A DNA stretch of 64,000 nt from an uncultured Gammaproteobacteria bacterium. GTDB taxonomy: Bacteria; Pseudomonadota; Gammaproteobacteria; DRLM01. The position numbers and the translations under genes are program-made. Each line of letters opens with the position of its first letter. The stretch's first letter is position 1. Positions 27,815 through 30,130 of the stretch are shown one piece after another. The notes below the pieces were generated by a model, which searched no databases, was not told the DNA's origin, and was given only the letters and a program-made list of their open reading frames with translations. The stretch lies in assembly GCA_947259075.1 (NCBI GenBank), contig CAMYKQ010000041.1, positions 41,079-105,078 on the forward strand. The letters are read 5' to 3'.

Positions 27815-30130
27815 ATGAGCATTGTTAAAAACCTGGTGAACCGTGAAGAGATCGACCGTTACGAGGAGGGCGTTCAAGCCTATGTCGGCGGCCAGATGGA
27901 CCCGGACCGCTTCATGGCCTTCCGCCTCCAGCACGGCATCTACGGCCAGCGCCAGGACGGCGTCCACATGATCCGCGTCAAGCTGCCCGGCGGCGCCCTC
28001 AACGCGGAACAGATGAGCGCCATCGCCGACATCCTCGACGACTACGCCCAGCATGACGTGGTGCATATCACTACCCGGCAGGACATCCAAGTCCACTATG
28101 TGCCGGTCAAAGATACCGCCGCCGCCATGCGCCGTCTCGGTGACGCGGGCCTGACCACCCGCGAGGCCTGCGGCAACACCGTGCGCAATATCACCGCCTG
28201 CCCGCTGTCCGGCATGTGCGCCCGCGAACACACCGACATCACCCACCACATGGAAGCGGCGGTCGCCCGCTTCCTACGTCACCCGCTTACCCAGCATCTG
28301 CCGCGCAAATTCAAGATGAGTTTCTCCGGCTGCGAGACCGATTGCGCCCAAGGCCTGATGCACGACCTCGGCGTCATCGCCGTTAACAATAACGGCCGTT
28401 TCGGCTTCAAGATCGTCGCCGGCGGCGGCCTGGGCCACAAACCCCACCACGCCATCACCGTCGAAGAATTCATCGAGGAAAAAGAGCTGCTGCCCTGCAT
28501 CGAGGCGCTCATCGCCCTGCACAACCGCTACTCCGACCGCAAGCGCCGCGCCAAGGCCCGCATTAAATTCCTGGTCGATAAATTCGGCGCCGAAGGCTTC
28601 GTGGAAAAATACCGCGAAGAACTGGCGCGCACCCGCACCGCCTACGAAGGCCAGCCCTATCCGCAAGGCCAGTGGGCCGCCGGCGCCACCACGGGTGAAA
28701 CCCCGGAGGCCGGCGCGCCGCGCCGCGTCATCGCGCAAAAACAGCCCGGGCTAAGTGTCTTCCCCATCACCACCCCCATCGGTGATATTAATTCGCCCCA
28801 GCTGCGCGGCATCGCCGCGCTCATGGAAAAACTGGGTTTGGAAGAAATCCGCGCCACTCAAGATCAAAAACTCATGCTCATCAACGTCCCCAGCGCTCAA
28901 ATCGCCGCGGTACGCGCCGCCGTCAACGCATTGGGCCTGAGTGAGCCGGCAACCGGCGACAACGTCGTCGCCTGCCCCGGCACCTCCACCTGCCGCCTCG
29001 GCATCACCTCGTCGAAGACCATCGGCACCAAACTCAGCGGCGGCGTGCATGACCTGCGCATCCGCGCCAGCGGCTGCCACAACGGCTGCGCCCAACCCGA
29101 GACCGGCGACATCGGCATCTACGGCGAGGGCAAACGCCTGCACGGCAAGCTCATCCCGCACTACCAAACCTATTTCGGCGGTGACGGCCGCGGCAACGGC
29201 GGCCTGGCCATCAAGGGCCCCACCGTGCCCGTCGCGCGCATCGAGACGGCGGTCAAACGGGTGCAAGACACCTACAGCAGCGCCCGCCAAGACGGCGAGA
29301 GCTTTTTCCACTGGACCCATCGCCAAGCACCCGGCTACTTCAACACCCTGCTCGCCGACTTGTGCACGGTGGCGGAAAACGAAATGGCCAGCGTCGCCCG
29401 CGACCACGGCGAGGCCGATTCATTCAAGGTGCTGCAACTGGGCGGCGGCGAATGCGCCGGCGCGGCGCAGGAGCTGGTGTCGTCCAATTTCGCCGAGGCC
29501 GCGCACGAACGCAGTTACCGCGTCGCCTTCGGCCTGCAGCGCAAATTCGAAGAGGCCTCCGAGTGCGCCGAACAGACCCTGCGTTTGGTGGGCCAATCCC
29601 TGCTCTTCCTCGCGGGACAAAAGGCCGTCAACGACCTCAATGAAATCGCCGCGACGATACGCGCCACGCTGCCACAAAGCGCGGCCCTCGCCGAGCAACT
29701 GGAGCAATTCAGCGCCGAATTAAAAGTGCAGCGCGACGAAACCGATGTCGACAGCTTCGCCAAATTCTCACGCGCCATGGACGAGTGGATGGTGGCCGCG
29801 GCCGAAACCTGCCAAACCATAGACCGTCAGTTGGACTTATCAGCGTCACTGCCCGCCAACATCGCGGCGGCCAAGAAAAGCGCCGCGGTGGTGATCGACC
29901 TCACCGGTTATGGCTGTCCGCTGCACTACATCAAGGCCCGCAACGAACTGCGCAAATTCAATCAGGGTGATGAAGTGGATTTCTTGTTCGTCTCCGGCGA
30001 TCCCTCGCTGCAAGTGCGTTCCAGTCTCAAAAGCGACGGTCACGAAATACTGAGCTTCGAAGAACTCGGCACCGCCACGCGCATCAAAATCCGCAAGGCG
30101 GCCGAGGCCAGCACCGCCACGGCGGGGTAA
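27815..30130 (+). CDS. Ferredoxin-type assimilatory sulfite/nitrite reductase hemoprotein (NirA/Sir-like) fused to a helical linker and a C-terminal TusA-like sulfur-carrier domain
   Basis: The N-terminal ~570 aa carry duplicated NiR/SiR ferredoxin-like and siroheme/4Fe-4S domains, with Cys clusters ACGNTVRNITACPLSGMC, VVACPGTSTCRLGI and SGCHNGCAQPE. The C-terminal ~75 aa carry the TusA CPxP motif VVIDLTGYGCPLHYIKARNELRKFNQGDEVDFLFVSGDP. Confidence 0.8.
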   Translation: MSIVKNLVNREEIDRYEEGVQAYVGGQMDPDRFMAFRLQHGIYGQRQDGVHMIRVKLPGGALNAEQMSAIADILDDYAQHDVVHITTRQDIQVHYVPVKDTAAAMRRLGDAGLTTREACGNTVRNITACPLSGMCAREHTDITHHMEAAVARFLRHPLTQHLPRKFKMSFSGCETDCAQGLMHDLGVIAVNNNGRFGFKIVAGGGLGHKPHHAITVEEFIEEKELLPCIEALIALHNRYSDRKRRAKARIKFLVDKFGAEGFVEKYREELARTRTAYEGQPYPQGQWAAGATTGETPEAGAPRRVIAQKQPGLSVFPITTPIGDINSPQLRGIAALMEKLGLEEIRATQDQKLMLINVPSAQIAAVRAAVNALGLSEPATGDNVVACPGTSTCRLGITSSKTIGTKLSGGVHDLRIRASGCHNGCAQPETGDIGIYGEGKRLHGKLIPHYQTYFGGDGRGNGGLAIKGPTVPVARIETAVKRVQDTYSSARQDGESFFHWTHRQAPGYFNTLLADLCTVAENEMASVARDHGEADSFKVLQLGGGECAGAAQELVSSNFAEAAHERSYRVAFGLQRKFEEASECAEQTLRLVGQSLLFLAGQKAVNDLNEIAATIRATLPQSAALAEQLEQFSAELKVQRDETDVDSFAKFSRAMDEWMVAAAETCQTIDRQLDLSASLPANIAAAKKSAAVVIDLTGYGCPLHYIKARNELRKFNQGDEVDFLFVSGDPSLQVRSSLKSDGHEILSFEELGTATRIKIRKAAEASTATAG

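Follow-up and report, generated by a model that had tools for sequence, protein, structure and literature searches.

A sulfite reductase with a fused TusA-family domain in a cysB-tauE-like locus of an uncultured gammaproteobacterium

We analysed a 64,000-nucleotide stretch of DNA, referred to here as the window, from an uncultured gammaproteobacterium that is probably autotrophic (GenBank assembly GCA_947259075.1, contig CAMYKQ010000041.1, positions 41,079 to 105,078). The subject of this work is one gene in the window, sir-ext-tusA, which very probably encodes an assimilatory sulfite reductase with a real TusA domain at its C-terminal end. A gene for a TauE-like permease lies immediately upstream in the same orientation, a cysB-family regulator gene is divergent from the pair, and a small open reading frame (ORF) and a strong terminator lie downstream (Table 1). 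All of these neighbours had been called in an initial annotation made from the DNA letters, and all of them were confirmed, including the assignment of the divergent gene to cysB.

Table 1. Positions of the features of the sir-ext-tusA locus, numbered from the first nucleotide of the window
Feature	Position	Strand	Basis or remark
sir-ext-tusA gene, 771 aa	27815..30130	+	assimilatory siroheme sulfite reductase, family-specific helical domain and TusA domain
Second [4Fe-4S]/siroheme-type motif, C129-x5-C135...C173-x3-C177	28199..28345 (residues 129-177)	+	translation
Canonical siroheme-[4Fe-4S] motif, C387-x5-C393...C421-x3-C425	28973..29089	+	translation; same alignment columns as the cluster regions of M. 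tuberculosis NirA and plant NiR
Family-specific C-terminal extension	29327..29878 (residues 505-688, ~185 aa)	+	predicted five-helix bundle
Invariant loop, D530-H-G...F537-x-V...G543-G-G-E-C547-A-G	29402..29470	+	translation; candidate flexible cysteine arm
TusA-family domain	29891..30097 (residues 693-761)	+	Cys701 codon 29915-29917
cysB-family LysR regulator	25917..26834	-	Pfam HTH_1 and LysR_substrate; NCBIfam PRK12684 523 bits, cutoff 402
AT-rich divergent intergenic region	26835..26971	.	presumed promoter region of cysB and tauE-sir and CysB-binding region, judged from position only
TauE/SafE (DUF81/TSUP) family permease, first gene of the operon	26972..27751	+	Pfam TauE 158 bits
79-aa small ORF, Cys-less TusA-like paralogue	30163..30402	+	alignment with the TusA domain of sir-ext-tusA
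Bidirectional intrinsic terminator between the operon and a convergent DUF2846 gene	30525..30561	.	A6-CGCCGCGC-loop-GCGCGGCG-T6, 8-bp GC stem

The fused protein and its surroundings

The 771-aa reading frame given in the initial annotation was exact. It starts at an ATG with a Shine-Dalgarno sequence (GGGAG) 9 nt upstream, and its N-terminus is in register with those of its homologues. The same annotation had recognised a ferredoxin-type Sir/NirA core with the strings CPGTSTC and GCHNGC and had proposed a Pfam domain search; both strings were found exactly, and NIR_SIR, NIR_SIR_ferr and TusA all scored above cutoff. NIR_SIR matched residues 119-271 with 156 bits and NIR_SIR_ferr matched in two stretches with 110 bits, and the two tandem NIR_SIR_ferr and NIR_SIR repeats, with the corresponding fold, are those of the monomeric Sir/NirA type. 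The four cysteines of the two strings (C387, C393, C421 and C425) are invariant in family alignments down to 36% identity. This is also the case for the basic residues of the anion site (R54, R88, R124, K165 and K167), which match those of Mycobacterium tuberculosis NirA in the alignment and whose counterparts there, with the offset of the chain, would be Arg97, Arg130, Arg166, Lys207 and Lys209.

Identity to enzymes of known structure or function is low, only about 21-28% to M. tuberculosis NirA (1zj8), maize sulfite reductase (SiR; 5h8v) and plant nitrite reductase (NiR). Against the named NCBIfam equivalog models the protein scored 219 bits for the NirA family (cutoff 523), 208 for ferredoxin-NiR (cutoff 594), 118 for CysI (cutoff 757) and 110 for sir (cutoff 732). 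Because these scores fall far under all of the curated cutoffs, the reductase is, to judge from the profiles, a separate and unnamed clade within the NIR_SIR superfamily.

The N-terminal half of the protein also holds a complete C-x5-C...C-x3-C motif, and for this reason the top NIR_SIR match is found there. The motif can be matched position by position to the C-half motif of the same protein (E 2e-9), and its four cysteines are invariant across the family even at 36-45% identity, while alignments showed them to be absent from M. tuberculosis NirA, from plant NiR and SiR, and from a Pseudomonas-type Sir found at a related locus, L045, described below. It is possible that the enzyme holds two clusters, or even two sirohemes, in the manner of DsrA/DsrB. 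It probably has no second catalytic site, since some of the C-half residues that correspond to those of the anion site are acidic (D382 and D413).

What had been described as a helical linker of ~120 aa between the core and the TusA domain is longer than that and is a conserved domain specific to this family, which TusA-less relatives carry as well, ending straight after it. The extension had no Pfam or NCBIfam match, and in particular no Pfam similarity to DUF934 or DUF2849. It also has no relation to DsrC in sequence or fold, and it does not have the two-cysteine C-terminal arm of DsrC. An exhaustive HMMER scan of 1.84 billion representative proteins returned 62 matches, all within the sulfite reductase family; the full-length ones hold the extension at about residues 500-680, and the remainder are fragments. 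The protein was modelled with AlphaFold2 from an 89-sequence alignment (mean predicted local distance difference test, pLDDT, 82.5; predicted template modelling score, pTM, 0.73), and the extension was modelled as a five-helix bundle with pLDDT of 80-90.

Within this bundle, residues 532-550 have pLDDT below 50, and they include the stretch G543-G544-G545-E546-C547, which does not vary in 50 species-level sequences. Of these residues, E546 and C547 are retained without exception by family members at 36-45% identity, where C547 is the only cysteine of the extension to survive. The low-confidence loop probably corresponds to a mobile or cofactor-contacting segment. A metal or cluster site made of H531, C547, C584 and C666 was considered and rejected, as C584 and C666 vary at 36-45% identity. 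Together with the second four-cysteine motif in the N-terminal half, the helical domain with its GGGEC547 loop marks what is, on these characters, a distinct clade of beta- and gammaproteobacterial enzymes.

The C-terminal domain, put at ~75 aa in the initial annotation with the proviso that it should match TusA profiles, scored 35.1 bits against the Pfam TusA gathering cutoff of 28.6, and the last 83 residues alone scored 40.2 bits. Its two-layer alpha/beta fold matches E. coli TusA in the IscS complex (3lvj_C) at 1.7 Å, with Cys-Pro in the active-site position at the start of helix 1 and a conserved G-H ahead of strand 3. The active-site string, GYGCPLHYIK, which includes Cys701, is at nt 29906-29935. 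The CPxP signature reported for it had to be corrected: the classical C-P-x-P is not present, and 75 of 75 fused homologues have C-P-[LVMI]-H instead (C-P-L-H in the window). Among the genome loci, L015 has C-P-V-N. The same 75 sequences all contain the longer motif D-L-x-x-[YF]-[GA]-C-P-x-H-[YF]-x-[KR]-A-R, and each of D695, C701, P702, H704, A708, R709, S737, L738, G742, H743 and K761 is found in every one of them; Cys-Pro is kept in 20 of 20 fused genome loci. By this pattern the domain is under strong constraint, and TusA is under selection. Scores against NCBIfam TusA, YeeD/TsuB and YedF were only 16.6, 14.4 and 12.0 bits (cutoffs 79, 147.5 and 78), and on these profiles the domain is not an equivalog of TusA, YeeD or YedF.

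The 79-aa ORF downstream is, as far as similarity can tell, a real Cys-less TusA paralogue, since it can be aligned with the fused TusA domain from one end to the other (25% identity over 69 aa, E 3e-6) and has orthologues between sir-tusA and cysH at two related loci, L070 (10331-10567) and L010 (about 2650-2883). It also matches the hidden Markov model (HMM) of the TusA domain at E 4.7e-4. The ORF has SEHR in place of GYGCP, and its motif is LDL[ST]E[HY]R instead of IDL[ST]xYGCPxH. The terminator was read from the sequence, and a terminator scan reported part of it, on the minus strand.

The permease gene had been annotated as exporter-like. A DUF81-family protein (the family is that of TauE), CysZ, is found in the cys cluster of C. 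glutamicum and is needed there for growth on sulfate and sulfite (PMC1266029). From this analogy, and because the gene stands ahead of sir-cysH-cysDN in most related loci, the permease more probably brings sulfate or sulfite into the cell than expels it. With cysB divergent, the tauE-like and sir genes co-oriented, and the continuation into cysH-cysD-cysN seen at orthologous loci, the arrangement is that of a CysB-regulated cys operon and, on gene order, the locus is a CysB-controlled sulfur-assimilation locus.

No dsr or sox genes were found within the window, the rest of which is ordinary housekeeping DNA (rpoD, trkAH, ntrYX, rsmB, fmt, dprA, topA, prk and gcvPT). Two other features were recorded. 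Adjoining genes for an MT-A70-family methyltransferase and a BglII-like restriction endonuclease, an apparent type II restriction-modification pair, lie at 54075-55581 on the minus strand, where the GC content falls to 0.55. A 1518-aa ORF at 34641-39197 on the plus strand is rich in Ala, Leu and Gln, has a composition like that of tetratricopeptide-repeat proteins, and follows genes for small secreted proteins.

Relatives of the fusion and their operons

A scan with one genome per species gave 591 relatives. Counts of loci refer to the best 80 of these, and counts at the protein level to the 120 best database clusters. The initial annotation had not recognised the architecture as a standard one. 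It had counted a common annotated architecture as a refutation, and by that measure the fusion is recurrent: the same three-Pfam architecture is found in 101 of the 120 clusters, at 57-95% identity, and in 20 of the 80 loci, and the fused proteins already carry automatic labels (Joint Genome Institute labels and the NCBI name "sulfurtransferase TusA family protein"). No paper describing a Sir-TusA fusion was found in the full-text literature searched, which did not span every TusA review. The fusion is recurrent and known to databases, and seemingly not to the literature. All of the fused sequences are from uncultured bacteria, nearly all with the label Gammaproteobacteria. The 20 fused loci come from metagenome-assembled genomes (MAGs), for most of which that is the label (Chromatiaceae and Thiohalomonadaceae among them), with one Hydrogenophilales and a few broader or discordant labels.

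A divergent cysB was found in nearly all 80 loci, and a tauE-like gene immediately upstream of sir in most of those from Gamma- and Betaproteobacteria. Directly downstream, cysH is present in 72 of the 80 and is usually followed by cysD and cysN; the order sir-cysH-cysD-cysN was confirmed by Pfam in Nitrosospira briensis Nsp8. Such an operon is a textbook case of sulfate reduction for assimilation. The CysH of these relatives is of the Fe-S adenosine 5'-phosphosulfate (APS) reductase type, with CC...CxxC and ECGLH motifs. The two closest genomes (L001 and L002, 88-89% identity) share with the window the order TopA-Prx-CysB-TauE-Sir/TusA...DUF2846-PRK.

The TusA-less form of the protein, about 680-700 aa long, is, to judge by its place in the operon, apparently the enzyme that reduces sulfite for assimilation in Nitrosospira, Nitrosomonas, Nitrosovibrio, Gallionella, Sideroxydans and Ferrigenium. 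We take the enzyme of the window to be assimilatory because these TusA-less orthologues occupy operons of the order tauE-like-sir-cysH-cysD-cysN beside cysB. In a rough neighbour-joining tree of the core, the fused forms make up a gammaproteobacterial grade, and the TusA-less Betaproteobacteria are nested within it or beside it. The domain could have been fused early and lost later, or could have been gained repeatedly.

Several related sequences depart from the common arrangement. At L045 (1661-10280), from a gammaproteobacterial MAG, a Pseudomonas-type Sir (552 aa) and a DUF934 gene are found in a cysB-tauE operon, and a separate Sir-Ext-TusA gene, not followed by cysH, comes 2.7 kb later, which suggests that the two reductases are not simply redundant there. 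In a betaproteobacterial long-read MAG (L072, 7989-10835), Sir-Ext and a complete CysH share one reading frame of 948 aa; the genes are separate at sister loci, and either the two are truly fused here or a stop codon has been lost. At L016 the TusA segment (10064-10324) is in another frame, past a stop that ends Sir at 696 aa, and either TusA has become a gene of its own here or the assembly has a frameshift. A 1002-aa NCBI protein from a MAG (P0003) has ~230 residues of the Sir core duplicated internally, ends in a degenerate tail, and is probably an artefact of assembly or gene calling.

Possible sulfur transfer and competing explanations

The best overall explanation of these results, with a probability that we would put at roughly 0.6, is a CysB-controlled assimilatory sulfite reductase in which the cysteine of a tethered TusA handles sulfur. 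Sulfite would be supplied by the APS reductase CysH or taken up by the TauE-like permease, and would bind at a siroheme that is coupled to the C387/C393/C421/C425 cluster, where R54, R88, R124, K165 and K167 would hold it. Reduction by six electrons would bring it to sulfide-level sulfur for cysteine synthesis. The reduced sulfur might then be taken as a persulfide from the siroheme by the Cys547 loop, acting as an arm, and passed to Cys701, from which TusA would hand it to biosynthetic acceptors. The TusA domain would in this case be an optional tethered acceptor, and the same enzyme would work without it in Nitrosomonadales and Gallionellaceae.

The proposed relay has two steps because the TusA cysteine, as a surface residue of a globular domain, would be unable to enter a buried siroheme pocket, and because the invariant and apparently mobile GGGEC547 loop, present in every family member, is the sole feature that could bridge the gap. 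TusA-family cysteines carry -SSH, -S-SO3- and thiosulfonate adducts (PMC11073785), and CysJ-less proteobacterial sulfite reductases depend on small accessory proteins that are sometimes fused to them (DUF2849, DUF934; bioRxiv 10.1101/072470). A hand-off of sulfur through Cys701, perhaps relayed by Cys547, is plausible. That Cys701 does take part in sulfur transfer at the enzyme is tentative, and we would give it rather less than an even chance; for a relay specifically through Cys547 our confidence is lower still.

A number of observations weigh against this explanation, or against an essential role of TusA in it. First, a thiol and free sulfide do not give a persulfide unless an oxidant is present, and a hand-off would have to intercept partly reduced sulfur while it is bound to the siroheme. 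DsrC intercepts a partly reduced intermediate in DsrAB, but to our knowledge this has never been shown for an assimilatory enzyme. Second, TusA would seem to be dispensable for catalysis, because TusA-less orthologues sit in complete cys operons and no TusA-like ORF was found within 8 kb on either side of TusA-less sir genes, either by tblastn or with the HMM of the fused domain. Third, no positions in the core or the extension discriminate fused from unfused proteins, and there was no sign in them of a co-adapted docking or relay surface.

The conservation of the cysteine in orthologues had been made a test of the proposal in the initial annotation. Cys701 is kept in all of the fused homologues noted above; it is missing in P0146, P0148 and P0156 (38-41% identity; L081 155-2422 and L082 885-3218), in which a TusA-like tail has TSP, AGP or SPP instead of GCP, with sub-threshold Pfam TusA scores of 23.3 and 17.9 bits. 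These tails and the window's own Cys-less paralogue indicate that the TusA fold can serve a role independent of the cysteine. One of these distant Cys-less forms, P0148, is still directly followed by cysH. L081, the source of one of the distant members, has a GC content of ~42%.

Finally, cysH, cysD and cysN are absent from the window, whereas the closest relatives have an adjacent cysH. In these relatives cysH follows sir-tusA, and the corresponding stretches (30130-30580 of the window, 10313-11682 of L001 and 10237-11353 of L002) were compared. No remnant of cysH was found in the 64 kb, and the segment simply differs in the DNA alignment. Overall, the protein is an uncharacterised variant of a known enzyme, and the evidence for a mechanistic need of TusA is mixed.

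The same observations bring up another explanation, in which the TusA-like domain is an accessory module acting in docking, regulation or stability, and the conserved cysteine is not a sulfur-relay residue. Its contact could be with the electron donor, with CysH or with the TauE-like permease, much as YeeD, which binds its membrane partner via the same face, sits on YeeE (PMC11073785). The Cys-less tails, the Cys-less paralogue kept at L070 and L010, the TusA-less orthologues that are functional by context, and a core without discriminating positions would all be expected from such a module. The invariance of C701, P702 and H704 in the fused sequences and of Cys-Pro in the fused loci is not, as this is an active-site-like pattern. 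TauE and TusA also do not co-vary, TauE being present in many TusA-less loci and missing from some TusA-bearing ones, L003 and L006 among them. We consider this explanation rather unlikely.

Alternatively, TusA could deliver the substrate, with a Cys701 S-sulfonate or thiosulfonate, formed from thiosulfate or from the sulfo group of APS reductase, being reduced at the siroheme. An Fe-S APS reductase forms an S-sulfocysteine intermediate on the enzyme, and CysH in the relatives is of this type. Adducts of the -S-SO3- and thiosulfonate kinds are known from YeeD, DsrE3 and TusA, the first of which also breaks down thiosulfate (PMC11073785), the TusA domain falls exactly between Sir and CysH in most fused loci, and the in-frame Sir-CysH of L072, if it is not an assembly error, hints at proximity of the two. 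However, the domain is an equivalog of none of YeeD, TusA and YedF (at most 16.6 bits against cutoffs of 78-147), the Arg/Lys set of the active site is that of enzymes using free sulfite, TusA-less orthologues have the same operon, and the window has no cysH at all. This makes delivery of a bound substrate improbable.

A reverse or dissimilatory role, in which TusA-bound sulfane sulfur would be converted to sulfite as by rDsrAB with DsrC, and the TauE-like protein would expel the sulfite as an exporter, is more improbable again, and we give it very little weight. In its favour, sulfur oxidation by the rDsr and sHdr pathways uses TusA as the sulfur donor (PMC11094781), the TauE family takes its name from the export of sulfite, the labels of lineages with fused forms include Chromatiaceae, Thiohalomonadaceae and Thiotrichaceae, and the fused gene of L045 stands apart from a cys operon that has its own Pseudomonas-type Sir and DUF934. 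Against this, the cysB-tauE-sir-cysH(-cysDN) synteny is common to fused and unfused forms, including those of nitrifiers and iron oxidisers, a protein of the DUF81/TauE family imports sulfate and sulfite in a cys cluster (PMC1266029), and there are no dissimilatory sulfur genes nearby.

An assimilatory nitrite reductase (NirA) is very improbable: the top NCBIfam and PDB sequence matches are named NirA or nitrite reductase, but all NCBIfam scores are far under the equivalog cutoffs, the operon partners are cysB, cysH, cysD and cysN with no nitrate or nitrite genes, and the M. tuberculosis "NirA", the best structural relative, is itself a sulfite reductase.

Assimilatory sulfite reductases are thought to release free sulfide, and TusA is known to carry persulfide sulfur to tRNA thiolation, to the synthesis of the molybdenum cofactor and into dissimilatory sulfur oxidation. 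With a covalent fusion of the two that recurs and is strongly conserved, TusA-type sulfur trafficking would for the first time be linked by genome data with sulfate assimilation. If the cysteines are catalytic, protein-bound sulfur intermediates would occur in assimilation, beyond the dissimilatory Dsr systems, and a single polypeptide would offer a compact test system; if they are not, the clade is still worth characterising, as an uncharacterised sulfite reductase that, by its place in cys operons, appears to be the assimilatory enzyme of nitrifiers and iron oxidisers of environmental importance. A stronger form of the tethered-TusA explanation is assimilation without free sulfide, in which Cys547 would attack partly reduced siroheme-bound sulfur to form a persulfide that passes to Cys701 and on to cysteine or cofactor synthesis. 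We think this quite unlikely. If true, it would be the assimilatory counterpart of DsrAB-DsrC and a modern form of the old "carrier-bound" pathway of sulfate assimilation, and the N-half cluster motif would belong to a distinct electron-input route.

Comparison with known systems

The closest characterised enzymes are M. tuberculosis NirA/SirA (1zj8), maize SiR (5h8v) and plant NiR, which have the same C-half motif, the same Arg/Lys anion site and an assimilatory context. Compared with these, the enzyme of the window adds the four-cysteine motif of the N-terminal half, the ~185-aa helical domain with its GGGEC loop, and TusA. The TusA domain itself has the fold of TusA, YeeD and YedF (PF01206; E. 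coli TusA 1dcj and 3lvj_C; YeeD 8j4c), a Pfam score above cutoff, and the Cys-Pro and G-H of that family. It differs from them in being fused to an enzyme and in having CPxH rather than CPxP, and no partner genes for IscS, DsrEFH or YeeE lie nearby.

With DsrAB-DsrC the enzyme shares cluster cysteines kept in both of its repeats, as they are in DsrA and DsrB. The analogy could be carried further, with the Cys547 loop as a mobile cysteine arm in the place of the DsrC tail and with TusA-mediated sulfur traffic, although at this level it would be a conceptual one. Unlike DsrAB, the enzyme is monomeric, is assimilatory by context and is without the ferredoxin insertions. The extension and DsrC are unrelated in sequence and fold, and the extension has one invariant cysteine rather than a two-cysteine C-terminal arm.

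The last comparison is with the CysJ-less CysI/Sir enzymes that work with DUF934 or DUF2849 (Price et al., bioRxiv 10.1101/072470). These are about 550 aa long and, unlike the enzyme of the window, are without the N-half cysteines, the extension or TusA. They are nevertheless of the same proteobacterial assimilatory type without CysJ and with an accessory module, which can be fused to the enzyme, as is DUF2849 to cysI in P. putida GB-1 (bioRxiv 10.1101/072470), and the representative of this type at L045 has the same cysB-tauE context upstream.

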